From IMG/VR virus record IMGVR_UViG_3300033066_001594: a stretch of 64,000 bases of DNA; one strand, given 5' to 3'. Of the stretch, positions 3,016 through 64,000 are shown piece after piece; positions within the stretch are counted from its first letter, which is position 1, and each line of letters opens with the position of its first letter. Source of the stretch: an uncultured virus (IMG/VR IMGVR_UViG_3300033066_001594). Taxonomy: Duplodnaviria > Heunggongvirae > Uroviricota > Caudoviricetes. Under the pieces are notes generated by a model. It saw nothing but the letters and a program-made list of their open reading frames with translations, ran no database searches and was not told the origin of the DNA. The translations under genes were made by a program, and so were the position numbers.

Positions 3016-3022
3016 GTGTCTC

Positions 3023-7563: not shown

Positions 7564-8226
7564 GTGAGGCAAAACGTGGCAAAGAAAATTGAACACCAGA
7601 ACGGTGACCTGAAGGTCTGGCACACACCACAAATCCCCGGCAAGCCGTTCGAAGTTGACGTCGAGAACCTGGTCGAGGCCCGGCTGATTCTCGATGCCCT
7701 GGCTGACTACGACGACTTCCAGTTCAAGAACAAGATCAGGCCCGACTACTCCAACGCCAATGGTCTTGTCTCTTGCGTAAACGGGGAGTGGGAGGATTTC
7801 GATCCTGACTCCATGGACGGGTTTGTTCAGGCGGTCTTGTATCTGTTCCCGGATGTCGACACGATCTCCTGTGAGTTCTGGCGGACTAACATGACCGTCG
7901 AGCAACTGCGGCAGGTCTGTCAGCAGATGGAAGAGGACAACGAAGGTCTGCTCTTCTTCCGTTACAAGTATGTCAGTGTCTACTCCACGATCTGGAAGAA
8001 CGACTGCACGTCAGACTTCTGGTTCTCGACGACGGATGGTCAGGACAGCGATGACAGCGGCACCTTCGACGTTCGTGATATCCCGCCGATCCCAGAAGCG
8101 AAGCAGGCCAAGTACGAATCCATGCATCCGGACGACCGTACCAAGCAGACGCTGGCCTGGGCCATCAACAACGGCTGGCTCACGGACACCGGCCTGAAAT
8201 TGCCTAAGAAAAAGAAGAGGAAGTGA
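7564..8226 (+). CDS. P22 gp17-like (superinfection-exclusion related) domain fused to a second domain
   Basis: LKVWHTPQIPGKPFEVDV...DALADYDDFQFKNKIRPDYSNANGL matches my recollection of P22 gp17. Confidence 0.65.
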   Translation: MRQNVAKKIEHQNGDLKVWHTPQIPGKPFEVDVENLVEARLILDALADYDDFQFKNKIRPDYSNANGLVSCVNGEWEDFDPDSMDGFVQAVLYLFPDVDTISCEFWRTNMTVEQLRQVCQQMEEDNEGLLFFRYKYVSVYSTIWKNDCTSDFWFSTTDGQDSDDSGTFDVRDIPPIPEAKQAKYESMHPDDRTKQTLAWAINNGWLTDTGLKLPKKKKRK

Positions 8227-20409: not shown

Positions 20410-21213
20410 ATGCAGATCCCGGAACCCCTCCAGCGACTCCTGGACAATGACGCGTTGTTCGTGCTCAACGACAGCGGGGGGAAAGACTCGCAGGCCATGC
20501 GGATCCTCCTCTCTCGCGTCGTACCGGCCTCGCAGCTCCTGGTCGTTCACGCCACGCTCGGCGAGTTCGAGTGGCCAGGTGCCCTGGAGCATGCCCAGCA
20601 AGGTGCCGATCGGTTTGACCTGCCGTTCGTTGTCGCCCGTGCCACCAAGACGTTCTTCGAGATGGTCGAGCGTCGGTACGAGAGCGACAAGACCAGACCG
20701 TGCTGGCCGTCATCCTCCACCCGCCAATGCACCAGTGATCTCAAGCGTGGACCTATCGAGCGGGAAATCCGCGGCTGGGGTGTCAAACAAATCGTCAGCT
20801 GCATGGGGATCAGGGCCGCCGAGTCTCCTAAGCGGTCCAAGCTGGATCCCCTGAAGTTCAGCGGTCGTAATTCCCGGGCTGGCCGCGAGTGGTGGGACTG
20901 GCTTCCGATATTTGACCTGTCGACGGATGAAGTGTTTCGGACGATCGCTGACGCGGGCGAGGAGCCCCACTACGCCTACAAGCTTGGGAACAAGCGGCTG
21001 AGCTGCCTGTTTTGCATCCTCGCCTCCCGGGGAGACCTGCAGAACGCGGCACGTCACCATCCAGACATGTACAGGCAATACGTCGAGCGGGAAGAACGCT
21101 ACGGCTACACCATGCACCAGTCACGCACCTCACTCAAGGTGCTGGTTGAAGGTAAACCTTCCAACGCGTTGGAAAATCCAGACGAGGATCTCCCATGCCT
21201 AAGTCCAGAATGA
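20410..21213 (+). CDS. phosphoadenosine phosphosulfate reductase family protein
   Basis: SGGKDS PP-loop, CTSDLK, GIRAAES..R, LPIFD, RLSCLFC. Confidence 0.85.
   Translation: MQIPEPLQRLLDNDALFVLNDSGGKDSQAMRILLSRVVPASQLLVVHATLGEFEWPGALEHAQQGADRFDLPFVVARATKTFFEMVERRYESDKTRPCWPSSSTRQCTSDLKRGPIEREIRGWGVKQIVSCMGIRAAESPKRSKLDPLKFSGRNSRAGREWWDWLPIFDLSTDEVFRTIADAGEEPHYAYKLGNKRLSCLFCILASRGDLQNAARHHPDMYRQYVEREERYGYTMHQSRTSLKVLVEGKPSNALENPDEDLPCLSPE
21159..21174. promoter_or_regulatory. palindromic site, copy 3 (TTCCAACGCGTTGGAA)
   Basis: Perfect 16-bp palindrome 20 nt upstream of ATG 21195. Confidence 0.6.
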
Positions 21214-24326: not shown

Positions 24327-24536
24327 ATGTTCAAGGTGAACGACATCGTTTGTCACAAGGCATCGTTTCTCAAGAGCATCGGCTGGATTACTGACGTCCC
24401 GAAAAACGGCAAGGTTGTCGAGGTCAAGCTCGGCGAACCGCAGCGTGTCATGGTCGAGTGGTGTGACGGTGACACCGTCACCATCCTCTGCAGCAACCTT
24501 GTCCTCGAATCCAAGAAGCACCTTGAGCCGGTATGA
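24327..24536 (+). CDS. small SH3/KOW-like protein
   Basis: MFKVNDIV...GKVV...VEW...NL. Confidence 0.6.
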   Translation: MFKVNDIVCHKASFLKSIGWITDVPKNGKVVEVKLGEPQRVMVEWCDGDTVTILCSNLVLESKKHLEPV

Positions 24537-48288: not shown

Positions 48289-50070
48289 ATGTCCCTGTTT
48301 GGCTATACCGTTGGTAACAACACGATCGACTCGCCGCGGACCTTCAACGGTCGGCAGTACCCCGATCCGTTCGTCACCTACGCCACGATGCTTATGCCCC
48401 GTACCATCGAGGATCTTCTTCGATGGTGTGAGCACTTGTGGAACCGCAACTCGACGTACGCTGCCGCCGCCTGTCGCGTGGTCAGCTACTTCGTCACGAA
48501 GGTCGAGATCCAGGACTGCCAGGACGACGACGAACGCAAGCGGTACACAAAGTTCCTGGACCAGACGCTGAAGTTGGCATCCAACGCCACGGCCGTCGGC
48601 CAGGACGTGATGGCGTACGGCAATTCGTTCACGAGCCTGTACCTGCCCTTCCGCCGGTTCCTCTCCTGCAACGGCTGCAAGTGCCAGATCCCGGTCACCA
48701 ACCTTGACTACAAGTTCGTGAACTTCAAGTTCCACTGGACGTGCAAGGGCTGCAAGACGAACAACGTCACCGAGAGGCCGATCGACCGCCGGACGATGGA
48801 AGAGGACAAGGTCCGGATCATCCGCTGGGCCCCGCTCCAGATCCGTATTCGCCACAACCCCGTGAGTCAGCGGAACGAGTACCTGTGGGACCCGCCGGTG
48901 ATGTTCAAGAAATCGATCCGCGACGGCGACCCGCACATGCTGCAGGACACGCCGTGGGAGATCATCGAGGCGATCAAGGTCAACCGGCTGTTCAGGTTCT
49001 CACCCGACGCCATCTACCACATGAAGGAAGAGGGCCTGGCGGGCATCAACCACGCCGGCTGGGGCGTCTCCCGGTTCATGCGTAACTTCACGCAGGCGTT
49101 CCACGTCCAGATCCTCAAGCTCTACAACGAGATTCTGGCCCACGAATACATCGTGCCGTTCCGCGTGATCAGCCCAAAGGCGGCCGGCGGCACGGGCAGC
49201 GATCCGATGGTCCAGCAGAACCTGAGCGGGTTCTCCTCCAGGATGCAGGGCATGCTCAAGAGCTTCCGGCGAAGCCCCGGCGGCTGGCATATCGCACCCA
49301 TGCCCATCGAATACCAGTCGCTGGGTGCCGAGGGTGTCGAGATGGCCACGCACGAGCTGATCGAGCAGGCCGAAGACTCCATGCTCAACGCGGCCGGGTT
49401 CCCGGCTGAGCTGTACAAAGGCACTCTCCAGCTGCAGGCACTGCCCGCAGCCCTTCGTCTTTTCGAGCAGCAGTGGCCTCACTTCCGGGACGGCCTGGAC
49501 GGCTGGGTTCGCTGGATCGTGACCACGCTCGCCGCGACGTTCAACTGGGAGCCGGTCTCGGCCCGCATGCAGCCGCCGTCGCTCGCCGACGACATCGAAA
49601 CCAAGCAGATGAAGCTCCAGCTCGTGGCAGCCAACCAGCTCTCGCGTCAGGCCGGCCTCACCCCGCTGGGTATCGATCCAGAGGCGGACGAAGACCAGCG
49701 TCTCGAAGAGCAGCAGCGGCTGGCCGAGAAGTCGCAGAAGATACAGGAGGAGCAGCAGCAAAAGCAGATGCTTCAGCAGCAGATCCAGAGCCAGCCCATG
49801 CAGGCTGTCGGTGCAGGCAGTGGCGGAGCCGACGGGGCGTCCACCACGCCGCAGGACATGCAGGGCCAGGCCGACCAGATTGCCAAGCAGCTCCTCTCCA
49901 TGCCGGAGAGCCAGCGTCGCAGCGAACTCGGAAAGATCCGGAAGTCGGACGAGACGTTGTGGGCTCTGGTCAAGAGCAAGATGGACCAGACACGCAGCGA
50001 GGGCGAGAGCCAGGGTCGCCAGCAGATGTATCAGCAGATGCAGGCTGCCGCCCAGCAAGGGCAGCAATGA
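48289..50070 (+). CDS. probable portal protein with an inserted Zn ribbon
   Basis: 593 aa; early helices then GQDVMAYGNSF and beta strands (portal-like layout), CNGC...CKGC insert, Gln-rich C-terminal helices; heads the structural module. Confidence 0.55.
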   Translation: MSLFGYTVGNNTIDSPRTFNGRQYPDPFVTYATMLMPRTIEDLLRWCEHLWNRNSTYAAAACRVVSYFVTKVEIQDCQDDDERKRYTKFLDQTLKLASNATAVGQDVMAYGNSFTSLYLPFRRFLSCNGCKCQIPVTNLDYKFVNFKFHWTCKGCKTNNVTERPIDRRTMEEDKVRIIRWAPLQIRIRHNPVSQRNEYLWDPPVMFKKSIRDGDPHMLQDTPWEIIEAIKVNRLFRFSPDAIYHMKEEGLAGINHAGWGVSRFMRNFTQAFHVQILKLYNEILAHEYIVPFRVISPKAAGGTGSDPMVQQNLSGFSSRMQGMLKSFRRSPGGWHIAPMPIEYQSLGAEGVEMATHELIEQAEDSMLNAAGFPAELYKGTLQLQALPAALRLFEQQWPHFRDGLDGWVRWIVTTLAATFNWEPVSARMQPPSLADDIETKQMKLQLVAANQLSRQAGLTPLGIDPEADEDQRLEEQQRLAEKSQKIQEEQQQKQMLQQQIQSQPMQAVGAGSGGADGASTTPQDMQGQADQIAKQLLSMPESQRRSELGKIRKSDETLWALVKSKMDQTRSEGESQGRQQMYQQMQAAAQQGQQ

Positions 50071-50228
50071 GCGTCCTGTGGCTCAAGCTCCTGGGTGCCG
50101 CGGTCGCAGCGATCCTGCTGACGCTCGTGGAGGTCAAGGTGTTCGCGTGGATGCGTAAACGCTACCGGGCGTACAGGTCTGACGAAGACGCGACCTACAT
50201 CAGCGACATTGGACGGTATCGTCATTAG
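50067..50228 (+). CDS. small membrane protein
   Basis: ATGA overlap with the portal stop; TM helix then RKRYR. Confidence 0.55.
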   Translation: MSVLWLKLLGAAVAAILLTLVEVKVFAWMRKRYRAYRSDEDATYISDIGRYRH

Positions 50229-50238
50229 GAGAGATCCC

Positions 50239-50751
50239 ATGGACCGGCTCCGCGAGGCCGCCTGGCTGCTGGATACGGCTTATCGTGCGATGCAGCTGGC
50301 ACAGCGGCTTTCGCCGGGCTGTCTGGACACACTTAAGGAAAGACTGATCATGTCTACAACCACTGACAAGGTTCGCCAGCTCATTCAACAAGTCTCGACG
50401 TTGGTCAGCTCCAACGCTGCCCTGCAGGCCCAGGTCGCTGCCAAGGACACGCAGATCACCACGCTGACCACGCAGCTCGACGACAAGACGACGGAAGTGG
50501 CGACGCTGACGGCCCAGGTCAGCCAGCTGACGACCGCCGTGTCCACGCTGCAGGCCCAGCAGGTGTCGCTGACCGCCAGCATCGATACCGTGCAGCAGGC
50601 GTCGGACGCCAAGGACGCGGCACTGGCCACGGCCAACGATACGATCGCCGCCAAGAACATACAGATCGCCGAGCTCCAGGCGTCGTCGCTCGACACGGCA
50701 CTGGCCCAGGAAGTCGATGATGCCCTGGACGCTATCCAAGGACAGCCGTAA
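50239..50751 (+). CDS. long coiled-coil protein (alternative start 50350)
   Basis: Thr/Ala/Gln-rich heptad repeats. Confidence 0.65.
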   Translation: MDRLREAAWLLDTAYRAMQLAQRLSPGCLDTLKERLIMSTTTDKVRQLIQQVSTLVSSNAALQAQVAAKDTQITTLTTQLDDKTTEVATLTAQVSQLTTAVSTLQAQQVSLTASIDTVQQASDAKDAALATANDTIAAKNIQIAELQASSLDTALAQEVDDALDAIQGQP

Positions 50752-50784
50752 ACAAGCGGATCGATCTTGAACTACAATGTGGGC

Positions 50785-51948
50785 ATGAGTCCGCAAACGC
50801 GACATCAAATCAAGCTGGCCTTCTGGGGTACCAAGGTGGCGGCGGCCTGTAAAGACGGGCCGCCGCCATTTGGTCATTCCAGGACGCAAGGTTCATCCAT
50901 CCGCGAGAAGCTGGCCGCGGCTCTGTCCAAGCGACGCAACGTGCTCCTGCCTCACCACCTGGGCCGCAAAGTCACCAAGAAGGCGTCTGTCGAGGAGTGG
51001 GGCAACACGCTCAAGAACCTTGGCAACCAGGCGACGACCGGTCTCAAGGGACTGAGTGATAAGGCGAATCAGGCGTTCGGCGGGACGGGCTGGCAGGCAC
51101 CGGCGATCGGTGCGGGTATGGGTGCGGGCATAGGCCTGATCGGCTCGGACAAGAACAAGACACGCAACACGCTGATCGGTGCGGCGGCCGGCGGCCTGGC
51201 TGGCCTGGGCATGAACACGTTCAAGCAGCACCAGCAACCACAACAGCCTGCTGGCGTTCCCACACCACAGACTGAACCGCAGGCCGGGGCTGCCGGCCCG
51301 GTGTCGTCGGCTGACGTGGCTCCTGGTGTGTTCGGCAGTGACCTGGGAGGACTCGTCGTGCCGGGTGCCGCCCTCACGGCAGGGCTGAGGTCATCAGCAG
51401 GCTGGGCTGTGCCCACGGTCGCGGGACTCGGTAACGACTTGAGTGCGGCTATCCGTGACGGTCATGGTAACATATTCAAGGGTCTGAACACCCGGGCGAA
51501 CAACCTTCTGGCCAACAAGGCCGAGACCAACAACTACGGCAGTGAAATGCTGTCACGTGCCACGGATGAGATTGGCAACTACGCGACGGGGCAGACGCCG
51601 GTAGCTTCCAACTTCGTGGCCATGGGCAAACACCTCGGGCGGGCGGCAACGGACAACACGCCGGTCGCCGGCTCGGCGTACGGCGATTCCTCTTCTGCAC
51701 TGGCGAACCAGGCCAACAAGCTGACGGCCAGTCTCAGCCAGCCGGCCCAGGGTCGTTTCGCGTACGAGGTGGCACCGAACGGTCGGACGATCCTGCGGGA
51801 CACGACCAACCAGGCAGCCGTACCGCGTAACATACAGGAGTTGCAGCAGCTTCAGTCCCAGAGCCCGGCGACGGCCCAGCAGCTGCTCGCCGCTCTCAAA
51901 CAGTACATGCCTGATCGTTATCAGGAACTGACGCAGCCCACAGCCTAA
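50785..51948 (+). CDS. putative internal virion protein with glycine zippers and K-x-A motifs
   Basis: GAGMGAGIGLIG, GAAAGGLAGLG; KLAF, KVAA, KLAA, KKAS. Confidence 0.65.
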   Translation: MSPQTRHQIKLAFWGTKVAAACKDGPPPFGHSRTQGSSIREKLAAALSKRRNVLLPHHLGRKVTKKASVEEWGNTLKNLGNQATTGLKGLSDKANQAFGGTGWQAPAIGAGMGAGIGLIGSDKNKTRNTLIGAAAGGLAGLGMNTFKQHQQPQQPAGVPTPQTEPQAGAAGPVSSADVAPGVFGSDLGGLVVPGAALTAGLRSSAGWAVPTVAGLGNDLSAAIRDGHGNIFKGLNTRANNLLANKAETNNYGSEMLSRATDEIGNYATGQTPVASNFVAMGKHLGRAATDNTPVAGSAYGDSSSALANQANKLTASLSQPAQGRFAYEVAPNGRTILRDTTNQAAVPRNIQELQQLQSQSPATAQQLLAALKQYMPDRYQELTQPTA

Positions 51949-51962
51949 AGGACACAGCGACC

Positions 51963-53666
51963 ATGACCCCCAACGTCCCACTCGAAACACGAATCTCGCG
52001 TACGGCCCGCTATCTCGAGGGCGTGATGAAGGCGGGGCTCGAAGCCGGCCTTGACACCGAGAAGCTGGCCTGTCTTTGTCAGGATGCCGGCGACGCGTTC
52101 TGCGTTCAGCAGTTCGGCATACCCATGATGGTGAAGCGTGCGGTTGCCAGCCCGCCCATTCCCGGCGGACCCAACCTCGCCGATCCTGCCGCGTGGGGTG
52201 GGGGCGGTCAGCAACAGTCCAACGCGTCGAACAATTCACAACAGCCGCAGCCCGGTCAGCCGCCGGTGGCCCCGCCGCCGCCCGGCCCGACGCTCCAGAA
52301 CCCACAGGGCGTCGCACCGCTGCCGCACCGCTACAACTTCCACCTCGACGACACCGTGCACCGCATCCGCCGCGACCAGATCGCTTACGCACAGAAGAAG
52401 CAGCGTGAGAGCCAGGAAGCCCAGCACTATGCGGGCGGGCCTGGCCTTGACGGCATCGCTCAGACGATGGACCCCAACGGACAAGCTGGTCAGATGGCTC
52501 AGACGCCGGCACTGGGTTCGCCTCCTGCAAGTGGTCCGTCGTCCACCAAGGCAGCGAGCATTGCCAATGACGCTATTGCAGGTGCCACGCTCGGAGGAGC
52601 CGCGGCAGCGGGCCTCGTCATCTCCAACTGGCTGGCCAATCGACGACAGGCCAAGACAGCTGCCGCCCAGCCCGTACCGTTCCATCAGCTGGGGAGGGAC
52701 ACACAGAACCACCTAGTGGCGGTGCACATGTTTCACCAGCGGAATCCTGAATACCAGGTCAGCAATCAGACTTATCTGACGTATAAGCCGTTCCTCGATC
52801 GAGCTGTACCCCCCAACGGCCATACGCGGGGTTCGAGGGCCTTGGGTGCACTCAAGGACGTCGGCTACGGCGTGGGTCTTGGGGCTGCCATACTTGGAGC
52901 TGGCTACGGAGTTTCTCAGCTGACAAAGAGTGCCAGCGATGCTCATTCGATCGCAGCGTCCGCCGGTCAGGTACTCGGTAACACCGTACGGGGCAACCAG
53001 TGGGCAGCACCGTTGATCGGGGCTGGCTTCGGGGCTACAGTCGGCGGACTGGGCGGACTTCTTAAGGGCGGGATACTCGGAGCGATCTCTGGGCCAAAAG
53101 GTGAACGTGGACGATACGCCAAGCGAGTCGGCGTAACTCATGGCATTTTGAGTGGCCTGGGCGGTGCGGCCTCCGGGGCTCTGATGGGTGCCGCGTACAA
53201 CGCACAGGCAAACCAGGCTGGCGGCGTCAAGCAGGGCAACGTCGGCTTCCAGGCTGGACAGAGGCAGGATGGAGCGTATAAAACCGCGTCGTTCGCCGCA
53301 CGTGTGCTGACGAACCAGATCAAAACCGCGAATATAGATGAAGCACTTACTGCGGCTCTGGGCGGAGGTGCCGGGGCAGTGGTAACGGCCCCCGTTGGCG
53401 GTCTCATCGGGTTGATCAGGGCCAAGGCAGCCGGAAAGTCGGGACGACGTGGGGTTCTTCACGGTGCTATTCTCGGCGGAACCCTCGGAGCTACACGAGG
53501 TGCTATCGGCGGCTGGAATAACCCAGTACCGTGGAGTGAACTCGGTACGCCGCAAATGCCGCCGGGCTGGACTCCAGGAACACCGATTCAACCGTTTGAC
53601 ATGCTGCCACCGCAGCCGCCTATCGCCCCAGAGTATCAGTTTGATCAGGACCCGTTACACGCTTAA
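51963..53666 (+). CDS. putative internal virion polyprotein with multiple glycine-zipper modules and K-x-A motifs
   Basis: Modules start after KAAS, KTAA, KSAS, KTAS, KTAN. Confidence 0.65.
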   Translation: MTPNVPLETRISRTARYLEGVMKAGLEAGLDTEKLACLCQDAGDAFCVQQFGIPMMVKRAVASPPIPGGPNLADPAAWGGGGQQQSNASNNSQQPQPGQPPVAPPPPGPTLQNPQGVAPLPHRYNFHLDDTVHRIRRDQIAYAQKKQRESQEAQHYAGGPGLDGIAQTMDPNGQAGQMAQTPALGSPPASGPSSTKAASIANDAIAGATLGGAAAAGLVISNWLANRRQAKTAAAQPVPFHQLGRDTQNHLVAVHMFHQRNPEYQVSNQTYLTYKPFLDRAVPPNGHTRGSRALGALKDVGYGVGLGAAILGAGYGVSQLTKSASDAHSIAASAGQVLGNTVRGNQWAAPLIGAGFGATVGGLGGLLKGGILGAISGPKGERGRYAKRVGVTHGILSGLGGAASGALMGAAYNAQANQAGGVKQGNVGFQAGQRQDGAYKTASFAARVLTNQIKTANIDEALTAALGGGAGAVVTAPVGGLIGLIRAKAAGKSGRRGVLHGAILGGTLGATRGAIGGWNNPVPWSELGTPQMPPGWTPGTPIQPFDMLPPQPPIAPEYQFDQDPLHA

Positions 53667-53675
53667 TGGTTATCA

Positions 53676-54866
53676 ATGAAACCACTCGAGATCTACGACA
53701 AGGTGATCGGCCGGCAGCCCGGCTTGTACGGTCCGCTCCACGGGGCAGGACCGGCAGCCGTTGGCCGGGCCGTCCTCGGGGCGGGCATCGGCTACGGGGC
53801 CGGCAAGCTCTTTGGTGGTACACAGAAGACCAAGCGAAACCTCGCACTCGGCGGAGCGGTGGCCAGCCTTGTTCCCAGTGGTCTGGATATGGCGACGATG
53901 CACGGACTGGGTAAGGGGATGAATGATCCGTTCCCTTATGCCCCACCTGTCCAATCTGTCCAACCTGTCTCGCCTGTCGCCCCGCCCAAGGTCGCTAAAG
54001 ACCTGAGCTGGGTGGGCGTGCAGATCCCCGGGCACCTTCGCAAGCGAATCCGCGAGATGGCCAAGGGCGTTGCTGATGAAGACCTGGTCCCGGCAAAGAT
54101 CAAGAACTACGGGCAGGGACGGGAGATGAACCCGCACGTCACCGTGCTCTATGGGCTCCGCACCAAGGACCCCAAGAAAGTTGAGCCGGTAGTGAAGGGG
54201 AAATATCCCCGCATCCCGTTCCGCCTGGGAGCCATCAGTACTTTCGAGAAGCCTGATTACGATGTGCTCAAGATTGACGTGCACTCAGGCGACCGGCTCA
54301 AGGGTCTTTACAACCATCTCAAGTCCAACCTGCCTAACGCCGACGTGCACCCCACGTATCACCCGCACGTGACGCTGGCGTACCTGCGTAAGGGCGTGGC
54401 CCAGAAGTACGTGGGCTCTCACCCGCTTCGCGACCAGAAGGTGGAGGTGAACAAGGTCCGCTTCTCGACCTCGGACCGCGACAACACCGACATCAAGCTG
54501 GCCACGGCCATGGACACGATGGCCGAGATCGCCCCGGCCCAGTACAGCCCCGTCTACTTCCCGTTCGAACCAGGACAGGACCACATCTCGGTCAACGGGG
54601 CAGCCAACGCCGTGCTCGCCGATCCCAAGATGTCGCTGTCGCAGAAGGCCGTTGCGTTCGACGTGCTCAGCAAGGCGGCCGATGGTCGGGACAGCGGACT
54701 GATCACAAAGAATGACCTGGTGCGTGGGGCATTGGGTGCGGGCATGGGCTATGTCGCGGCCCAGACGATGGGCCGCGTGCTCGGTGCCGTGTTCGGGCTG
54801 GATCGGACCAGCCAGCGTCGGCTCTCGCAGGCCGGGGCGTTGGGCGGATTGTTCAACAGTCTTTGA
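53676..54866 (+). CDS. glycine-zipper protein with a central 2H phosphoesterase (Acb1/2'-5' RNA ligase-like) domain
   Basis: Two HxT motifs (PHVTVLYG at 54132, PHVTLAY at 54363), YDVLKIDV; glycine zippers on both flanks. Confidence 0.8.
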   Translation: MKPLEIYDKVIGRQPGLYGPLHGAGPAAVGRAVLGAGIGYGAGKLFGGTQKTKRNLALGGAVASLVPSGLDMATMHGLGKGMNDPFPYAPPVQSVQPVSPVAPPKVAKDLSWVGVQIPGHLRKRIREMAKGVADEDLVPAKIKNYGQGREMNPHVTVLYGLRTKDPKKVEPVVKGKYPRIPFRLGAISTFEKPDYDVLKIDVHSGDRLKGLYNHLKSNLPNADVHPTYHPHVTLAYLRKGVAQKYVGSHPLRDQKVEVNKVRFSTSDRDNTDIKLATAMDTMAEIAPAQYSPVYFPFEPGQDHISVNGAANAVLADPKMSLSQKAVAFDVLSKAADGRDSGLITKNDLVRGALGAGMGYVAAQTMGRVLGAVFGLDRTSQRRLSQAGALGGLFNSL

Positions 54867-54877
54867 TAAGAGCCACG

Positions 54878-55171
54878 ATGCTGGGTAAACGGAAAGACCT
54901 CGTCAAGCTTGCAAGTGGTATCTACGACTTGATGCAACCTGGTGAGTACGGCAAAGACGAGGATGGCGTGTGGTATTGCTGTGCCCCTGCACCTGTTGAC
55001 AAGGACGGGTTTGGATTCCACGGGACACTCGGCGACGGCAAGGGCGACCGTGGTCACATTGTGACCGAGCATGAAGACGGGACAATCACTGTCTTTCCTT
55101 CGATTCTCATTACTCGTCACGACGGGTCTTGGCATGGCTACCTTGAACGGGGCATCTGGCGTCAGTGCTGA
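54878..55171 (+). CDS. DUF6527-like protein
   Basis: TITVFPSIL....WHGYLERG.W. Confidence 0.55.
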   Translation: MLGKRKDLVKLASGIYDLMQPGEYGKDEDGVWYCCAPAPVDKDGFGFHGTLGDGKGDRGHIVTEHEDGTITVFPSILITRHDGSWHGYLERGIWRQC

Positions 55172-55184
55172 TAGGATAAGTCAC

Positions 55185-55589
55185 ATGGACAAGATTGCTT
55201 TTCGTCGCGGTTTCCTCCTGGCCCTCGCTTCTTATGGCCTGGGCCCGGAAGAGTTTGGTCGTCTCGTTGCTGAGAAGCAGTCGGGTGTGAAGACCGCGTT
55301 CAATCCGGTGAACCTTCTTGATCCGTTCGTCGCCGCGGGCATTGGTGTCCCGTTGGCCTTGGGCACGCTTGCGGCCCGTCACAACGCTGACGGTGACGCA
55401 AACAATCTATACAGGCGGACGCGGATCAAGTACAACCCTATCAACGACGTTTCGAATGAACTGGCCCAGGCCACACGCCGGCTCCAGACGCTGAAGGATC
55501 GTCGTCAGCCCAAACCGGAGCTCCCGCGTGTCACAAGCCCAGCCCTCGGCAGCGAATCCTATCTACAACCGCTTCCGCCAGCCCGATGA
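55185..55589 (+). CDS. putative virion protein with K-x-A motifs
   Basis: MDKIAFRRGFL...VKTAF, hydrophobic Gly segment. Confidence 0.6.
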   Translation: MDKIAFRRGFLLALASYGLGPEEFGRLVAEKQSGVKTAFNPVNLLDPFVAAGIGVPLALGTLAARHNADGDANNLYRRTRIKYNPINDVSNELAQATRRLQTLKDRRQPKPELPRVTSPALGSESYLQPLPPAR

Positions 55590-55950
55590 GAGAACCCGCC
55601 GATACTTCGCGGCAGACCCCGGCGTCGAGTTCCGCGGACAAGTCCCCCTTATCAATGCCGACGACCCGAACCAGCCGCAGGAGTTCATGGACGGCATGGC
55701 TCGGGTCTTCAACCTTGCAGATCCCCAGCAGGCCAAGGATTACAATGAGGTGATCAACAAGGTCGCACGAGGCATCGCGATCCTGTGTAGGGAGGATGTA
55801 ACGTTCAGCGAGAAGACGGACAACTACGTGATCTACGCTCGCTGGATGGAACGGTTTTACGCGATGCCCGACTACACACAGAAAGAGACCAACGGTGCAG
55901 CCCAAACTCAGCCCACTCCGAACGCTCCAGTCGCCCAGATTTCTGTCTAA
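55528..55950 (+). CDS. hypothetical protein
   Basis: RVFNLAD....DYNEVIN...YARW.E. Confidence 0.6.
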   Translation: MSQAQPSAANPIYNRFRQPDERTRRYFAADPGVEFRGQVPLINADDPNQPQEFMDGMARVFNLADPQQAKDYNEVINKVARGIAILCREDVTFSEKTDNYVIYARWMERFYAMPDYTQKETNGAAQTQPTPNAPVAQISV

Positions 55951-58042
55951 GACGGCGGGCGTCGAGGGTCAGCAAATCTCCAACGCTCTGTGGGGCTCCA
56001 ATTACCAGCCCGACTCCAACGGATTCCTGAAGGACCCGCTCCTGCTGTCACTGGGCACGGGACTGGGGATTGCCGGCGGTTCGGCACTGGCCAAGTACCT
56101 CGGTCCGAAGAAAGATGTTCCGACGCGTCAGCAGCTCAGCCTGCTCAAGCAGCGTCAACAGGCCTTCAGCCAGGCCCTGCAGGGGTCCGGTGCCACGCCG
56201 CCGGCCAAGCTCGCAGCCGCTGTCATCGACAGGGCCTGTGAACTTGTCACCGAGAAGCGGGCGTTCTGGGAGTGGTATCTGCCCGGTGCCATGCTCGCAG
56301 GGACCGCCGCCTATGGGGCGAGCTACCCGCACTTCTACAAGAACAACGAAAGCTACATCCGGGCCAAGGCGATGCAGCGTGCCAAGAGCCGCATCCAGGC
56401 GGTCAAGCCGCCGGGCGTGCAGGTCGAGACGCTCAAGCCGGGTGAAACACCCGAACAGCTCAAGGCCTTGTCCACGTCTTCGGAAGATGTGGTGCCGATG
56501 CCGTCCGCCGACAAGCTCGCCGGCCTCCAGTACCTGGACGATCTGGACCTGTTCGCCGCCCTCTCGCATTCGCTGTACACCGCCGGTGCCCTGCAGCCGG
56601 ACGACAAGCCGCTCGTCGATCTGCTCGTGAAGACAGCGACACAGCGATACGCACGGACCGAGAAAACGGCCAGCGTGAAGCTGGCGTTCTCGGCCGAAGA
56701 ACTGCAGACGGTGCTGGACAACCCGAACGCCCAGCCGCAGCTTCTGTCCATGATCGACAAGCTGATGAAGCTCAAGCCCCAGGACTTTGCCGAATACGGC
56801 AGCACGCCGCAGGAGGTCGTCGCCTACATCAAAGACAAGATGTCGTACCCCTTCATGGGCAGCACGGTTGCGGACGCCCTCACGAAAAAGGTCGAGGCAA
56901 CGCCTGAAATCGCTTCTGACATCGCGAACCTCAGATCGACAGCAGGCTTACCCGCGGCGTCTCAGGCTCCTGCCGCACAGGCACAGGCGGGACAACAGGG
57001 CCAGCAGGGACAACAAGGACAGGACGGACAGCAGGGCCAAGGTGGCTTGAAGTCCAAGGCCATGGACTTGCTCATGGACCAGACACCGCAGGGTCTGCTC
57101 GGCATTCTGGGTGGTGCCGTGGGGATGGCCACAGACCATCCGATCCTCGGACTGCTCGCTATGGTGATGGGTGCGTTTGGTGCACCGGCCGTTTCCTTCC
57201 TGGCCAAGCAGTACCCGAACGTCGGCATCCTGCAGAAGGTCAACCAGTTCATGCAGGACACCACGCTTCGCAAGCTCGTGGACGGCTACCACGCCAAGAC
57301 GCAGGAAGCGATCAAGGGCGACGCACCCCCGACTCCTCCCACGACTCCTCCCACGACTCCGCCCACGACTCCGCCTACAACTCCACCCGCAGCTACTCCG
57401 CCTACGACTCCTGGCGGAGCGACGCCGTCGGCACCTGCAACAACCACACCGACGACGCCAGCCACACCACAACCGTCGGCTGGTCTACCGTCAGCGGCTA
57501 CACCGGCGACACAGACCACGGCAGCAGTGCCAGGTAGAGAGGTGAGACAGCCTGCTGAGGGGCCAACGCCCAATGTGAATCAACCTCCGACCACAGCAGC
57601 AACGCCAGGTCGAGAGGTGCGGCAGCCCGCTGAAGGGCCAACGCCCTCACTCTCTAGTCCTGGATCTGCGTCCCCGGATACGGGAAACCAGCAGCTACAG
57701 CCAGCAGGGGCTGCTCCTGCGGCCCCGGTGTCGATGCCAAAGCCACCGACGACCCCCAGTAAGGTTCCTGCACCGATGCCAGCGGCACCGCCGGCAGTTA
57801 AATCAGGCATACCGTCGCCGGCAGCGGTCCCGATGCCACCGAGCATGAAGAACATCATGTCGGGCATGCCCAAGATCGATGTTCCGGGCGGTGCTTCAGC
57901 GACAAGCCACGGCTCGTCGCTGGGTATGAAACAGATGACGGGCCAGGCCCCGGCGGCTTCGGCGACCACGTCGGTCCCGACGCCCAAGCTCAACCCGCTA
58001 CCCCACGGTGTCACGGGCCTTGGGCCTAAAGTCACCGCTTAA
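55895..58042 (+). CDS. putative virion protein with K-x-A motifs, hydrophobic hairpins and a Pro/Thr-rich tail
   Basis: KTAG, KLAA, KRAF, KLAG, KTAT, KTAS, KLAF; low-complexity C-terminus. Confidence 0.7.
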   Translation: MQPKLSPLRTLQSPRFLSKTAGVEGQQISNALWGSNYQPDSNGFLKDPLLLSLGTGLGIAGGSALAKYLGPKKDVPTRQQLSLLKQRQQAFSQALQGSGATPPAKLAAAVIDRACELVTEKRAFWEWYLPGAMLAGTAAYGASYPHFYKNNESYIRAKAMQRAKSRIQAVKPPGVQVETLKPGETPEQLKALSTSSEDVVPMPSADKLAGLQYLDDLDLFAALSHSLYTAGALQPDDKPLVDLLVKTATQRYARTEKTASVKLAFSAEELQTVLDNPNAQPQLLSMIDKLMKLKPQDFAEYGSTPQEVVAYIKDKMSYPFMGSTVADALTKKVEATPEIASDIANLRSTAGLPAASQAPAAQAQAGQQGQQGQQGQDGQQGQGGLKSKAMDLLMDQTPQGLLGILGGAVGMATDHPILGLLAMVMGAFGAPAVSFLAKQYPNVGILQKVNQFMQDTTLRKLVDGYHAKTQEAIKGDAPPTPPTTPPTTPPTTPPTTPPAATPPTTPGGATPSAPATTTPTTPATPQPSAGLPSAATPATQTTAAVPGREVRQPAEGPTPNVNQPPTTAATPGREVRQPAEGPTPSLSSPGSASPDTGNQQLQPAGAAPAAPVSMPKPPTTPSKVPAPMPAAPPAVKSGIPSPAAVPMPPSMKNIMSGMPKIDVPGGASATSHGSSLGMKQMTGQAPAASATTSVPTPKLNPLPHGVTGLGPKVTA
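57329..57412 (+). repeat. 12-bp tandem repeat encoding (PPTT)n
   Basis: CC(T/G)CC(C/T)AC(G/A)ACT-type units. Confidence 0.75.
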
Positions 58043-58070
58043 TGGCCGCTTCCAGTAAGCTGGAAGGACC

Positions 58071-61000
58071 ATGGCAAGTCAACCACTCAGCCCACAACAC
58101 GATGCACCGGCTCCCATTGAGCCGGTGCATCGTGATTTCCTGGATGTACCGTCCACCCGTCAGGGCCTGTTTGACGGCGTGATCGGGTCGATTAAGACCA
58201 GTTACCCGGTGTCGAACAACCAGTTCGAGCTGCACATCGAGAATCCCAAGTACACGGCGACGCCCAAGTACAGCATCGCCGACCAGAAAAACGCGATCCT
58301 CAAGCAGCAGAGCCTGACCTGGCCGATCAAGGGCGACTGGGTGCTGAAGGACAAGCAGGGTCAGGAGATCCACCGCGTCAAGAACAAGCTGATCGCCCGC
58401 GTGCCGTACATGACCGATCGCGGTACGTTCATCTACAACGGCACCGAGTGGACGGTCTCGAACCAGCAGCGGCTGCGTTCAGGTGCCTACGCCCGCCAGA
58501 AGGAGAACGGTGACCTGGAGAACCACGTCAACCTGATCCCCGGCACGGGCAAGAGCTTCCGCCTGCACATGGAGCCTGACACTGGTGTGTTCAAGATCCA
58601 GGTCGAGCAGAGCCACATGCCCCTCTTCCCGGTGCTGCGTGCACTGGGTGCCTCTCCGAAGGACTTTATCGATCACTGGGGTCACGACCTGTACATGGCC
58701 AACGCCCGGCAGGGAGATCCGCAGACCGTTGCCAAGGTGTTCGGCAAGCTGGCCCGCACCGCACAGCTCGAACAGTTCAAGCATGACCCGGCCCTTGGCA
58801 TCCGCGAGATCTTCGCCAAGGCGGGACTCGACCCGGAGGTGAGTCAGCGGAACCTGGGGGCCCCGCACGCCAGCGTGGACGCACCCATGCTGCTGGCGGC
58901 CACGCGGAAGCTCCTGCACATTCACCAGGGCAAGGCCGAGCCGGACGACCGCGACTCGCAGGCCAATCAGACGGTGCACGGCCCGGAGGACCTGTTCGCC
59001 GAACGCATCACCAAGGACTCGGGACGCATCGCCAAGCAGCTCCTGTGGAAGGCGACGCACAACCGCAACCTCAACCACATCTCCTCGTCAGCCTTGACGC
59101 CGCAGCTCAACTCGGTGCTGCTGACCAGCGGCCTGGGTTCCCCGCTGTCAGAAATCAACCCCGTCGAGATCCTCGACCAGCTGGCTCGCGTGTCGCGTCT
59201 TGGTGACGGCGGCATGGGTTCGAGCGACGCCATTCCCATGGAGGCTCGCAGCGTCCAGCCCTCGCAGATGGGCTACATCGATGTCGTGGCCGGCCCCGAG
59301 TCAGGAAACATCGGTGTCGACACCCGTGCGGCGTGGGGTACGCGGAAGGGCAAGGACAACCTCCTCTACCAGCAGATGATCAACGTCCGGACGGGCAAGC
59401 CCGAGTACCGCTCGGCACGCGACACCGTTCACAGTGTGCTGGCGTTCCCCGGTGAGATGGAGAAGAACTCCTCGTCGGTCCGAGCCATGGTCGACGGCCG
59501 CATGACGTACGTGCCGAAAGAAAAAGTGGACTACGTGGTGCCCAGTGGCAACCACATGTTCGCGTTGACGACCAACCTCATTCCCGGCCTCTCCGGCATC
59601 AAGGGCGGCCGTGCTCTGATGGGTGCCAAGATGGTCAAGCAGGCTCTGCCCATGGTCAACGCCGAGGCCCCGCTCGTGCAGTCGGCTCACCCGGATGGCG
59701 GGAGTTTCCACGAACACCTGGGACGGTTGATGGGGACGGTGCATGCCGCGACCGACGGAATTGTCCAACGTGTTGGACGAGATTCGATTCACGTCCGCCA
59801 CGCCGACGGCTCGCTCAAAGAGCACGAGTTGTATGACAACTTTCCGTTCAATGCCAAGAGCGTCAGCGGCAACAGCCTGGTCGAAGTAAGGAAGAAAAAT
59901 AAAAAGGTTTGGACGGGGGCGATCCAGGACTACGTATCTCAGGAAGGAGATTTTGTTCGGTCCATTCATCCCGTAACACACCAGTCCGCGTGGATGCCAA
60001 TCACAGGGTTCATAAAACACAGGAACGATAAAAAGCTGTACCGCATTACAACTGCATCCGGTCGTCACGTGGTTGTAACCGAAGACCACAGCTTAGTTAC
60101 TGTTGGAGACGCCGGTCAGCTCGTGTCCGTATTTCCTAAGGATTGTGTGGTGGGTGAGACTAGACTCCCCGTCGCCACGATTCCTAATACGACAACCCTG
60201 TTTGATTGGTCCTACGATTTAGGCGTGGTTGCTGGCTTGTACCTCTCTGAAGGTCACATTCCAAAAGCTCAACCGAACCTGATTAATATCGCGGTCGCTC
60301 CTGATGTTAGAGCTGCTGAAGTAAAGGAGTTGCTTATTCGGGTTAGTACGAGCGGACGTAAGCCATTCCGGAATGGGGGCAGCGTTTGTCTGACTGACGT
60401 AAACCTGTCTAAATGGTTACAGCAACACTTCGGACGAATGTCTCATTTCAAGTTTGTGTCAGACGCGGTTCTTAATGCCCCAGAGCCGTTCCGTCGCGGA
60501 CTCGTCAACGGGTACATGGGCGGGGATGGTACTCTAGCCATCGACAGCAATAACGCCGTCCAGATCAACGCTTACAGTATGTCGAGGAATCTGCGTGACG
60601 GCCTGGTACGTGTCCTAGCGTCATTGTCTGTGTTCTGCTCTGTAGACGACAGTCGATCGTCCCCAGAAGGTCCGGTTTACGGCTTTCGAGTCATCTCATC
60701 TCACCTGACGAAGCTGGACCGATGGTTCTGTTACGAAGACCGACACGTCAAGTTCCAGGCCACTACCAGCAAGACGTACCGATCATCCCCCTACTCTGCG
60801 ATTCCTGTGCCAAAATCTCGTAAGGCTCGTAAAGCCCTCTACACGGACAACAAGCCAAACATGTTTGTGTACAAAACAGCGAGTCTAGGTTTTGTTGCGA
60901 AGGAGCGTGTAGCTAAGTTCAAAGGCCCATACGGACGCTGGGGCCGATCCGACGTTATGTGGGACATGATCACAGACATTTCGCCCGTACCGCACGAGGA

Positions 61001-64000
61001 TTATGTTTACGACTTTTCTGTGGGCGGATCTGAGAACTTTGCTGTAAATCACGGTCTAGTTGTTCACAACACGTTTGTGCACAGCACGCCGGTCGTCAAG
61101 CCGGGCGATCCGGTCACCGCCGGTCAGCTCCTGGCCAAGAGCAACTACACCAACGACAAAGGCGAGCTGGCACTGGGCCTGAATTTCAAGACCGGGTACA
61201 TGCCGTACCAGTCGGAGCACGGCTCTGTGGCCGCTGACACCCACGTGCTGTGGTACGACAGCGACAATCAGCCACATTTCGGACCTGTTGAGACTGTAAG
61301 TGACGCTGTTAAAGCGTTAGCGTTAGATCCTAGATCACTTAAGACGTCTCCCCTCGGGATCACTAAGCTGTGGGCTCACCCGCCAACTGGCGGTATGTCT
61401 GAAGTGATTACATCCTCCGGTCGACGTGTAGTCGCAACTGATAACCACAGCTTCGTAACTTTGAACGATGACGGGCAACTTGTGGAGTCTAAAACTACGG
61501 GACTCACACCCAAGGTGTCTTGGATTCCTCGTCTCGGGCGGGTTGACCTGCCCGTAACAACTACAACGGCAGAGCTTGGATCCAAGACGTTGCCTGCGAT
61601 TGTGCTTCCGCTGTCCGCCGATTTAGGATTTGTTGTTGGCATGTATCTCGCTGAAGGATACGTGCGGCTACACAAAAACGTCGACTTCGCGGTCACTGAT
61701 CCTTTACTCCGTGTCCATCTTGTGGGGGCACTTCAACGGTTGTTACCGCACGCGACGATCTCAGACAAGCCTCAGAATCCTTACATTCGTGTGTACTGTT
61801 CTCGCCTTGCTCAGTGGCTGGAACAGACCTGTGGAAAGCTCGCACAGCGAAAGTTTGTGCCTGGTGCTGCTTTTGGGGCTCCTTTGGTGTTCCGTCTAAG
61901 CCTCCTCGCAGGTTTCTGGGCAGGCGATGGTCGTGTCTCGAGCAAACAGTCAGTACCGACAGACACTGACACCCTTATCACGTCAAAGAGACTCCGTGAC
62001 GGTCTGGGATTACTTTTCGCCAGCGTGGGTATTAGCACCACGCACGGCCAGTACACCGATGCTGCTTACTCGGAAGGGGTTGTGTACCGCCTTGGCATTA
62101 GCTGCCGTGACTTGAATAAATTTCCTACATTCCCGCACTCAGTTAAAGCGGCTCGTCTTGATGAGATCGTGCGTAGTTACAAGGGCTGTGGGTCTGCAGA
62201 TCACGTTCCTATCCCGCGTAATGCTGCAAAGGCGTACCAACAATGTGGACGGGGGCAAGGTCGTCGGGTCTACAACCGCCTCCAGGCTCAGGCCAAGGCG
62301 AGCACTGCTAATAGAGACGACGTATTGCGGTACGTGCCGGCTGATTCTCAAGACCCAGCACTCCAAGCTCTTCGACGGTTGGCTATCTCACCTATCGAGT
62401 GGGATCGCATTGAGTCTATTCAACCTAAGACCTACGTGGGGCTGGTTTATGACTTCGACATGGCTCCACTTCGTACGTTTGTTTGTGTTGATACGCTGGT
62501 AGTCCACAACTCCAACTACGAGGATGCCATCGTCATCAGCGAGGCGGCTGCCAAGCGTCTGACCAGCGAGCACATGAAGCAGCAGACGTACGACCCGTCT
62601 GCCGAGGGCGTGAAGGTCGACCGCAATCACTACCTCTCGGTCTTCCCGACCAAGTTCAACCGGGATCAGCTCAACAGCATCGGGGACGACGGTGTGGTCA
62701 AGCCCGGCACGCGGGTGACCCACGGCGATCCGCTGGTCCTGTCGGTCAAGACCAAGAAGCCGCAGCAGGGCATGAGTGCGTTGCACCGTCACAACAAGAG
62801 CTATACCAACGACGACGCCCTCACCTGGACGTTCAAGCACCCGGGCGTCGTGACCGACGTGCACCACGGTAACGACGGCATCAAGGTGACGGTCAAGAGC
62901 TATCACTCGATGCAGGTCGGCGACAAGCTTTCCGGTGCTTTCGGCGACAAGGGCGTGTGCGGGGCCATCGTCCCGGACGACCAGATGCCACGCGGCAGCG
63001 ACGGCCAGCCTCTCGAGGTCCTGCTCAACCCGCTCGGGGCGATTACCCGCACCAACCCCAGCCAGTTGATCGAGGCGGCACTGGGCAAGGTCGCGGCCAA
63101 GACCGGCAAGAAATACGTCCTGCCGTCGTTCGGCACCGATCTGCTCAAGTACGCCATGAGCGAGCTGGAGAAGAACGGCCTCAGCGACACCGACAAGGTG
63201 TACGACCCGCACACCCGGCGGACCAACGAGGTCTTCACCGGCAACCGGTTTCTCTACAAGCTGTACCACGAGGCAGAATCCAAGGAGACGGGCCGATCGG
63301 ACGCCGGCAGCTACACGAGTGAAGGTCAGCCGGCCAAGACCAAGGAAGAGTCGGCCAAGCGACTGGGCCTGCTCGACATGAACGCCCTGATCTCTCACGG
63401 CGTGCCTGCCGTCATCCGCGACAGCAAGCTGGTCCGCGGCCAGCGGAATGACGCCTACTGGGCAGCCTTCCGGTCCGGCCAGACGCCGCCGGCACCCGAG
63501 ACGCCGTTCATCTACAACAAGTGGCTTGCCCACCTGCAGGGGTCAGGCGTTCACATTCGTGACACGGCCCACGGCCTGCAGCTCATGGCCATGCGTGACA
63601 AGGACGTCGACCAGCTCTCACGGGGTGCTCTGACCCACGGCGACTCGGTGAGTCTCAAGGACAACAAGCCCATTCCTGGTGGCTTGTTCGACGTCGGACT
63701 GACGGGTGGTCACCACGGGCAGAATTGGACACACCTGGACCTGAGCGAGCCGATTCCCAACCCGGTGATGGAAGAGCCGGTCCGTCGGCTGCTCGGCCTG
63801 ACACAGAAGGAGTTCGAACAGCGGCTCGCGTCCCCGGAAGGGACCCACTGGTTCAAGGACAAGCTCGCGTCACTGGACGTCGATAAGGAGATCACCAGCC
63901 AGCGTCGACTGATCGAATCAGGCCGCAGGTCCAAGCGTGACGAGGCGGTCAAGAAGCTGGGCTACCTGACCACGCTCAAGCAGACAGGTATCAAGCCCCA
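58071..64000 (+). CDS. rpoBC: DNA-directed RNA polymerase beta-beta' fusion with two inteins (3' truncated by the window end)
   Basis: Single frame translated by hand with no stop. RpoB motifs: VPYMTDRGTFIYNG, RALMGAKMVKQA, GELALG, NYEDAIVIS, GDKLSGAFGDKG, LLNPLG, YKLYH. RpoC N-terminal motifs follow: KPIPGGLFD, HLDLSEP, TLKQTGIKP. Confidence 0.93.
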   Translation, partial: MASQPLSPQHDAPAPIEPVHRDFLDVPSTRQGLFDGVIGSIKTSYPVSNNQFELHIENPKYTATPKYSIADQKNAILKQQSLTWPIKGDWVLKDKQGQEIHRVKNKLIARVPYMTDRGTFIYNGTEWTVSNQQRLRSGAYARQKENGDLENHVNLIPGTGKSFRLHMEPDTGVFKIQVEQSHMPLFPVLRALGASPKDFIDHWGHDLYMANARQGDPQTVAKVFGKLARTAQLEQFKHDPALGIREIFAKAGLDPEVSQRNLGAPHASVDAPMLLAATRKLLHIHQGKAEPDDRDSQANQTVHGPEDLFAERITKDSGRIAKQLLWKATHNRNLNHISSSALTPQLNSVLLTSGLGSPLSEINPVEILDQLARVSRLGDGGMGSSDAIPMEARSVQPSQMGYIDVVAGPESGNIGVDTRAAWGTRKGKDNLLYQQMINVRTGKPEYRSARDTVHSVLAFPGEMEKNSSSVRAMVDGRMTYVPKEKVDYVVPSGNHMFALTTNLIPGLSGIKGGRALMGAKMVKQALPMVNAEAPLVQSAHPDGGSFHEHLGRLMGTVHAATDGIVQRVGRDSIHVRHADGSLKEHELYDNFPFNAKSVSGNSLVEVRKKNKKVWTGAIQDYVSQEGDFVRSIHPVTHQSAWMPITGFIKHRNDKKLYRITTASGRHVVVTEDHSLVTVGDAGQLVSVFPKDCVVGETRLPVATIPNTTTLFDWSYDLGVVAGLYLSEGHIPKAQPNLINIAVAPDVRAAEVKELLIRVSTSGRKPFRNGGSVCLTDVNLSKWLQQHFGRMSHFKFVSDAVLNAPEPFRRGLVNGYMGGDGTLAIDSNNAVQINAYSMSRNLRDGLVRVLASLSVFCSVDDSRSSPEGPVYGFRVISSHLTKLDRWFCYEDRHVKFQATTSKTYRSSPYSAIPVPKSRKARKALYTDNKPNMFVYKTASLGFVAKERVAKFKGPYGRWGRSDVMWDMITDISPVPHEDYVYDFSVGGSENFAVNHGLVVHNTFVHSTPVVKPGDPVTAGQLLAKSNYTNDKGELALGLNFKTGYMPYQSEHGSVAADTHVLWYDSDNQPHFGPVETVSDAVKALALDPRSLKTSPLGITKLWAHPPTGGMSEVITSSGRRVVATDNHSFVTLNDDGQLVESKTTGLTPKVSWIPRLGRVDLPVTTTTAELGSKTLPAIVLPLSADLGFVVGMYLAEGYVRLHKNVDFAVTDPLLRVHLVGALQRLLPHATISDKPQNPYIRVYCSRLAQWLEQTCGKLAQRKFVPGAAFGAPLVFRLSLLAGFWAGDGRVSSKQSVPTDTDTLITSKRLRDGLGLLFASVGISTTHGQYTDAAYSEGVVYRLGISCRDLNKFPTFPHSVKAARLDEIVRSYKGCGSADHVPIPRNAAKAYQQCGRGQGRRVYNRLQAQAKASTANRDDVLRYVPADSQDPALQALRRLAISPIEWDRIESIQPKTYVGLVYDFDMAPLRTFVCVDTLVVHNSNYEDAIVISEAAAKRLTSEHMKQQTYDPSAEGVKVDRNHYLSVFPTKFNRDQLNSIGDDGVVKPGTRVTHGDPLVLSVKTKKPQQGMSALHRHNKSYTNDDALTWTFKHPGVVTDVHHGNDGIKVTVKSYHSMQVGDKLSGAFGDKGVCGAIVPDDQMPRGSDGQPLEVLLNPLGAITRTNPSQLIEAALGKVAAKTGKKYVLPSFGTDLLKYAMSELEKNGLSDTDKVYDPHTRRTNEVFTGNRFLYKLYHEAESKETGRSDAGSYTSEGQPAKTKEESAKRLGLLDMNALISHGVPAVIRDSKLVRGQRNDAYWAAFRSGQTPPAPETPFIYNKWLAHLQGSGVHIRDTAHGLQLMAMRDKDVDQLSRGALTHGDSVSLKDNKPIPGGLFDVGLTGGHHGQNWTHLDLSEPIPNPVMEEPVRRLLGLTQKEFEQRLASPEGTHWFKDKLASLDVDKEITSQRRLIESGRRSKRDEAVKKLGYLTTLKQTGIKP
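59859..61070 (+). mobile_element. intein 1 (404 aa) with LAGLIDADG homing endonuclease
   Basis: Starts SVSGNS; TEDH block B; GLYLSEG and NGYMGGDG; ends VYDF...LVVHN|T; lower third-position GC than the exteins. Confidence 0.9.
61224..62510 (+). mobile_element. intein 2 (429 aa) with LAGLIDADG homing endonuclease
   Basis: Starts SVAADT; TDNH block B; GMYLAEG and AGFWAGDG; ends VYDF...LVVHN|S. Confidence 0.9.

Follow-up and report, generated by a model that had tools for sequence, protein, structure and literature searches.

A phage gene, interrupted by three inteins, for the probable large chain of an Arash-type two-chain RNA polymerase

The polymerase gene and its locus

We analysed a 64,000-nt stretch of DNA from an uncultured virus, hereafter the window. 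At its right-hand end a single ORF starts at ATG 58071 and continues without a stop for 1976 codons to the last letter, as the first-pass annotation had claimed (Table 1). This start is consistent with the N-terminus of the fused polymerase family described below. All motifs cited earlier were found in the frame, namely NYED (62514), GDKL (62919), DKG (62946), KLYH (63258), RLGLLD (63360), PETPF (63495), LSRGAL (63615), PIPGGLFD (63669), HLDLSEP (63732) and KKLGYL (63951). Pfam recognized Rpb2 domains 2, 3 and 6 together with two intein stretches, and the best solved-structure matches of the protein were bacterial β chains. The gene had been thought to be missed by the ORF track; it is simply clipped at the window edge, the complete product existing as protein P0001 (2757 aa, residues 1-1976 identical to the window translation), which is encoded on a 71,462-bp contig. 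The gene would end near position 66344, provided that contig and window are collinear.

Table 1. Features of the window
Feature	Position	Strand	Basis
MazG-like	2954-4000		family scan
Superinfection-exclusion gp17-like	7564-8226		family scan
PAPS-reductase-like	20410-21213		family scan
NAD-dependent DNA ligase	24533-26659		family scan
Portal protein, Arash gp204 homologue (28.8% over 489 aa, E 4e-66)	48289..50070	+	sequence match
Seven cysteine-poor genes from portal to polymerase, candidate internal virion proteins	50209..58042	+	composition, family scan
2H phosphoesterase-domain ORF, 396 aa, 0 Cys	53676-54866	+	family scan; weak Acb1-like match, E 0.0035
140-aa gene; 6 related loci have a homologue just upstream of the polymerase	55528..55950	+	sequence match
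Shine-Dalgarno-like GGAAGGA upstream of the ATG	58062..58068	+	sequence
RNA polymerase β-β′N fusion gene, first 1976 codons	58071..64000	+	ORF, protein match
Extein 1, β N-terminal part, aa 1-596, 0 Cys, GC3 0.83	58071..59858	+	Pfam, structure match, alignment
Intein 1, 404 aa, Ser1 to His-Asn, GC3 0.55	59859..61070	+	Pfam, alignment
Extein 2, 51 aa of β	61071..61223	+	alignment
Intein 2, LAGLIDADG endonuclease, 429 aa, Ser1 to His-Asn, GC3 0.52	61224..62510	+	Pfam, alignment
β C-terminal part: NYED pair, barrel with both catalytic lysines, KLYH, altered RFGEME-equivalent	62511..63563	+	Pfam, motifs, model
Seamless junction and start of β′N, zinc-binding domain deleted	63564..64000	+	alignment, pattern scan

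Run X1, which may be the source data of this DNA, yielded a near-identical Logan contig that covers 55800-64000 unbroken and gapless and differs by 2 silent substitutions. This contig has neither stop nor frameshift at 63540-63580, a break there having been named at the outset as evidence against the fusion. Short contigs from runs X2 (activated sludge), X3 and X4 (both riverine) were mostly 99% identical; no independent contig spanned the β-β′ junction with 31 letters on each side, X2 record 12 stopping at 63580. At 61178-61179, X1 and X2 both carry two different bases, and both changes are silent. An exact DNA search of metagenome contigs gave no match to this contig, a peptide-pattern scan of IMG/VR for this polymerase returned distant relatives only, and the best 80 loci of a genome-contig scan were ordinary bacterial rpoB/rpoC-like matches, from which no host was inferred. 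Positions 1-48000 hold dense, small ORFs on the same strand, almost all without a family match; we found no tRNA in the window and no terminase match among the window ORFs scanned.

P0001 carries three inteins (aa 597-1000, 1052-1480 and 2210-2669), each starting with Ser1 and ending in His-Asn; the third lies beyond 64000, together with the DFNGD catalytic loop (~64683) and the final 88 aa. Splicing would leave 1464 aa (exteins of 596, 51, 729 and 88 aa) with one cysteine. Inteins similar to intein 1 over its full length occur in five relatives (45-48% identity), and same-site alleles of intein 2 in three (41-50%). The GC3 of inteins 1 and 2 (0.52-0.55) lies below that of the exteins (0.83-0.88), which suggests that these two inteins arrived later.

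Once inteins 1 and 2 are removed, the β part measures the ∼1000 aa estimated previously. Such a length is not unusual, as seven β subunits of the mReC lineage (Weinheimer and Aylward) have 999-1052 aa. In an alignment with Pseudomonas β, the absent stretches of at least 15 aa were residues 2-19 at the N-terminus and, internally, 232-354, 941-1064 and 1140-1191, regions known as lineage-specific inserts. Both β lysines and the acidic pair of the active centre are present, and each lysine is kept in 198/198 fused ORFs. Residues of the rifampicin pocket are changed in the alignment (Q513S, D516S and H526Q, in E. coli numbering). The replacement of RFGEME by RLGLLD is genuine but not peculiar to this phage, the equivalent stretch being variable throughout the fused family. 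An AlphaFold model of aa 1481-1976 (pLDDT 82, pTM 0.49) matched bacterial β in Foldseek with E 2e-24; all its listed matches were β chains, so that it provides no separate structural proof of the β′ part.

The β C-terminus continues directly, with no stop, into a stretch that aligns with the RpoC N-terminus, just as the first-pass annotation had read it. The in-frame β-β′ fusion is thus present, but of β′ it covers only the N-terminal portion: the chain ends 88 aa past the catalytic loop and has neither bridge helix nor trigger loop, and β′C profiles matched neither P0001 nor the window. This end point corresponds to residues ∼522-540 of a Pseudomonas β′ ORF whose NADFDGD begins at 430. The cyanobacterial β′ split probably lies somewhat further along than here. 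Both the phiKZ-type and the cyanobacterial β′ are described as split after the barrel in a review (available text of PMC7598289). The zinc pattern CxC..CxxC was found in 0/37 rows of the fused family versus 7/7 mReC rows.

The two-chain family and its place in the virion

A homologue search scored 1894 proteins among 8000 candidates; because this number may include cellular RpoB, we examined only the 120 listed. All 120 were fused in the same way, at 46-58% identity (P0001 itself excepted), and most listed homologues end 91-106 aa past the start of the catalytic motif. Loci of the family show three layouts: two chains, a full single-chain fusion, or separate subunits. A separate β′C gene (∼620 aa) was found in 31 related loci, 234-5548 nt downstream (median 1039); the β′C proteins of these relatives have bridge-helix and trigger-loop motifs and align to bacterial β′ through both. 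The phage's own β′C was not found in the window or among the best 120 of 1776 matches to the β′C of locus L172. Full single-chain fusions from uncultured phages (2020-2160 aa, e.g. L024 and L044) form a sister clade in the same family; they share the junction and the missing zinc site, and intein-3 alleles with DxNGD also occur among them, but their β′C remains on the same chain.

In L042:10187-15958 and L047:10127-16033 the polymerase frames are split by single stops with 3-nt ORF gaps, as with a reassigned stop codon. In L046, L049, L020 and L021, β′N ends near profile position 377-381; the rest of β′ in L046 and L049 lies in a later ORF, and the catalytic loop may there be interrupted by an intron or a split intein.

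Five relative genomes (162-216 kb, four of them at least 90% complete) were examined. Each has a single β barrel (5/5), and four of the five carry homologues of two Arash proteins, sigma gp10 and the capsid protein. No α subunit was detected in any of the five (control 14/14). Pfam Sigma70_r2 likewise matched 0/5, which is a sensitivity miss because the Arash gp10 query matched 4/5.

Coverage of at least 80% of the query was reached by only four of 50,697 phage records, Salmonella phage Arash and the Vibrio phages D69, D148 and D181. These are the closest known relatives, Arash encoding gp206 (1525 aa), gp216 (606 aa) and the sigma gp10 (OQ632216; available text of PMC10585845). Gp206 is also a β-β′N fusion that ends ∼90 aa past the loop and is complemented by a separate β′C; its gene lies downstream of the portal gene, it has one cysteine and it belongs to the same clade. 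It differs from our query in sharing only 29-31% identity over the long exteins, in having no inteins and in its catalytic loop, YAADYDGD. Gp206 is termed 'subunit beta' in the available text of PMC10585845, where the words 'fused' and 'fusion' do not appear. In the accessible CC-licensed PMC and bioRxiv literature we found neither a description of the fused-and-split layout nor a formal name for the Arash-type two-chain phage RNA polymerase.

The first-pass annotation had suggested a packaged polymerase from the position of the gene behind putative internal virion genes. The order portal-then-polymerase is common to this window and Arash. Cysteine accounts for 0.27% of residues in the seven genes between portal and polymerase, whereas the 58 ORFs upstream of the portal reach 2.02%; among 67 homologues 1400-1500 aa long, 55 have no cysteine at all. 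Ejected virion proteins, as in N4 and T7, generally lack cysteine. Cysteine loss is a hint only, because Arash β′C has four and several are present in the portal and other known structural proteins. Lys-x-Ala, a candidate head-protease signal, occurs 26 times in the post-portal genes versus 16.4 expected; the polymerase has no excess. The ORF adjoining the polymerase upstream (55895-58042, 715 aa) has Pro/Thr repeats (PTTPPT) and a duplicated PGREVRQPAEGPTP segment, and no homologue of it was found in the related loci examined. Many polymerases of the fused family carry PF22547 or PF02834 inserts.

Mass spectrometry of Arash virions recorded 3516 spectra for Gp206, the most of any protein, 1210 for Gp216, 467 for the sigma Gp10 and 1333 for the major capsid protein (available text of PMC10585845). 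With this proteome, the portal synteny and the low cysteine content, packaging of the polymerase in the virion is in our judgement quite likely. The same two-chain enzyme could instead be made after entry and stay unpackaged, the host polymerase transcribing early genes and the phage enzyme middle and late ones. The Arash authors themselves allow that enzymes in sucrose-gradient particles may be carry-over (available text of PMC10585845), and Arash has a second sigma, gp196. There is also one polymerase set per genome, which leaves the transcription of late genes to this enzyme whether it is packaged or not. The spectra of Gp206 nevertheless exceed those of the capsid, albeit from a protein five times longer, the gene sits in the head module, and cysteines and zinc site have been lost clade-wide; an unpackaged enzyme therefore seems unlikely to us, and a packaged one is the reading we retain.

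The catalytic asparagine and intein 3

An NADFDGD motif had been expected downstream in the same frame. The motif is there, but it reads GADFNGD, immediately before intein 3, in a part of the chain known from the protein only; the middle Asp of DxDGD is encoded as Asn, and the DxDxD triad of the active centre as DFNGD. Among 198 fused ORFs, some of them redundant, the triad was Asp-Asp-Asp in 189, Asp-Asp-Asn in four and Asp-Asn-Asp in one (P0001), the remaining four being truncated. An insert directly after the motif was present in 12 fused ORFs, including all five Asn forms, and Asn was found in 0/182 insert-free homologues. A Fisher test of intein versus Asn (p 3.6e-7) was not relied on, as the rows are related.

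A search with intein 3, the query region of which also contained the 10 residues preceding the intein, retrieved 26 further proteins, 25-45% identical over this region. All 26 read D(F/Y/H)NGD followed by Ser, so that Asn was present in 27/27 carriers of the allele; the host exteins of the 26, full fusions among them, share 31-53% identity with P0001. A motif-first scan of IMG/VR with two patterns gave 12 matches, five RNA polymerases and seven other proteins, and 5/5 polymerases (three of them distinct in the stretch shown) had a 474-479-aa intein ending in His-Asn. A sequencing error was rejected as the source of DFNGD, given the same Asn in intein-carrying homologues and in this motif-first scan. 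When 211 hosts were placed on a FastTree built without the motif columns, the 26 NGD rows required 21 changes (shuffled mean 24.9). The five rows nearest to P0001 are DGD, and P0122 (NGD) is 85% identical to L019 (DGD). Residues further upstream of the motif vary with the host. Seven carriers of other intein alleles at the same site retain DFDGD; the insertion site alone does not, therefore, demand Asn.

Given Asn in all 27 carriers, none in the 182 insert-free homologues and 21 changes on the host tree, the Asn is real and travels with intein 3 from host to host. Homing accompanied by short co-conversion could put it there, and the absence of a revertant among the carriers suggests that intein 3 needs it. 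We infer that the intein needs, or always imposes, an Asn three residues before its start in an enzyme that would yet be active.

Other inteins were observed at this site. P0012, P0047, P0084 and P0109 contain a second type, with a Cys start and a Tyr-Asp end, which in 4/4 cases follows DFDGN, the third catalytic Asp being replaced by Asn. Same-site inteins with a Gln start (no first-residue nucleophile) or an Asp end were seen in P0006, P0034 and L048, and in P0027 and P0056.

E. coli RNA polymerase is crippled when residues of its aspartate triad are substituted, and the present copy might be a dead or crippled one, spread by a selfish intein in a phage that uses the polymerase of its host or of co-infecting phages. 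All three Asp are kept in 189 of 194 scorable fused ORFs, and Asn lies on at least 21 separate host branches, as homing with co-conversion would give. The carriers, however, have intact ORFs (1646-3592 aa), and the divergence of their inteins, to 25-45% identity, implies that splicing has long been under selection; there is no revertant among them, and the relatives have no second polymerase. A crippled copy of this kind is in our view very unlikely.

Two answers may be offered to how a functional enzyme would accommodate the residue. Asn-Gly is prone to deamidation, and conversion to Asp, spontaneous or helped by splicing, is one tentative answer; that the Asn form retains enough activity is another, which we hold with exactly the same reserve. 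A dead enzyme is a distinctly less probable outcome. A bolder and rather doubtful proposal is that the intein-3 family completes the active site, splicing or the resulting Asn-Gly geometry turning Asn to Asp and so switching the polymerase on, within a large, apparently undescribed clade of α-less, zinc-less, virion-carried RNA polymerases. We found no description of an intein-linked catalytic Asn in the accessible CC-licensed PMC and bioRxiv texts, including those of PMC7824862, PMC13282480, PMC13573597 and PMC7598289.

Relation to other multisubunit polymerases

We aligned β and β′N of 89 rows, trimmed to 1276 columns, and dropped 18 and then 19 rows to leave 52 for a tree under LG+C20+F+G4. 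Archaea, eukaryotes and phiKZ types were not represented in the tree, three of its four giant-virus rows were β′ only, and oral-type mReC was unsampled; seven contigs matched by sample id and length to the tables of PMC7481178 served as mReC references, six of them in the final tree. The fused family fell on one side of a branch (99/98), with the query inside the two-chain clade together with Arash (99/99) and paired with P0002. Bacteria, including four metagenome rows, were monophyletic without the query (100/99), and a clade of the fused family plus Bacteria was rejected (p-AU 0.0197). The query was 20-23% identical to seven mReC polymerases, 24-26% to 18 bacterial rows and, in the median, 47% to its two-chain relatives. 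Two further phage enzymes, of Cobetia phage Carin-5 and Yersinia phage YerA41 (L325 and L326), branch beside the fused family (98/95) on a long branch; the YerA41 β′ is annotated as two genes.

These data bear out a phage-encoded, deep-branching polymerase that is not of the phiKZ type and, by its sequence, lies outside Bacteria. The phiKZ/AR9-type virion and non-virion enzymes resemble it in having no α, a β′ split past the barrel and a packaged form, whereas they have a split β, two sets and no sigma (available text of PMC7598289 and PMC7824862). The query has a whole β, its relatives have one set (5/5) and a sigma homologue (4/5), and phiKZ/AR9 types match just 12-26% of it (49-67 bits) versus 99% for Arash and the Vibrio phages (270-283 bits).

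The first-pass annotation had placed the gene in or near the lineage of Weinheimer and Aylward and called that lineage often fused. The latter is not supported: in the available text of PMC7481178 'fused' and 'fusion' occur once each, both on crAssphage, and 90/90 table rows examined give separate β and β′ proteins. Like the query, mReC polymerases are phage-encoded, alignable to cellular RNA polymerase, outside Bacteria and short in β, and they occupy the neighbouring branch; they differ in their separate β and β′, a retained zinc site, a Gp23 capsid and often two sets per genome (available text of PMC7481178). Membership of the query could be argued from the branch that sets every phage row, Carin-5 and YerA41 included, against Bacteria and giant viruses (100/97), and from a β of ∼1000 aa in both groups. 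The mReC filter, which asked for separate β and β′ of at least 800 aa with NADxDGD (available text of PMC7481178), might also have missed fused enzymes; the query is fused and reads DFNGD. The joining branch is short (0.087), however, and may reflect long-branch attraction, the mReC rows form their own clade (100/99), and the identity of the query to them is lower than to Bacteria. The zinc site separates the two groups, and a Gp23 capsid (PF07068) was detected in 0/5 two-chain relative genomes versus 4/5 mReC-type records. Membership thus failed on three features and is highly improbable; nearness to mReC is plausible but not proven, in view of the short branch, the composition bias flagged in 20 rows and the limited row sampling.

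The query shares its catalytic lysines, ED pair and fold with bacterial RpoB/RpoC, and differs from them in its ∼25% identity, its lack of a zinc domain and its changed rifampicin pocket. Bacterial rpoBC fusions do occur, in Helicobacter and Wolbachia, and the best structural matches are bacterial, but such a fusion or an assembly chimera is refuted by the tree, the portal neighbour, the absence of ribosomal-protein families from the 85 window ORFs scanned, and the unbroken X1 contig.

We conclude that the gene probably encodes the large chain of an Arash-type two-chain phage RNA polymerase. One gene encodes all of β and the front of β′, with clamp and catalytic barrel, and removal of the three inteins leaves both barrels on one chain with no β′ zinc domain. 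Bridge helix and trigger loop would come from a β′C encoded just downstream, as seen in relatives only; from the same relatives, we would expect one polymerase per genome, an Arash-type sigma and no α. The two chains and the phage sigma may be packed in the head and ejected with the DNA, and the enzyme would then transcribe phage genes without host polymerase.

The family represents a minimal cellular-type transcription core of two chains, one of which bears both catalytic barrels; it has its own sigma, lacks α and the N-terminal zinc site, and is almost free of cysteine. Since Arash and three Vibrio phages are cultured members, α-less assembly, ejection and the origin of phage RNA polymerases are testable now. 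One mobile intein occurs in many unrelated hosts, and all its carriers have a near-universal catalytic Asp replaced: either Asn is tolerated in two-metal catalysis or the residue is repaired post-translationally, and with either outcome a textbook rule would have to change, with consequences for intein engineering.
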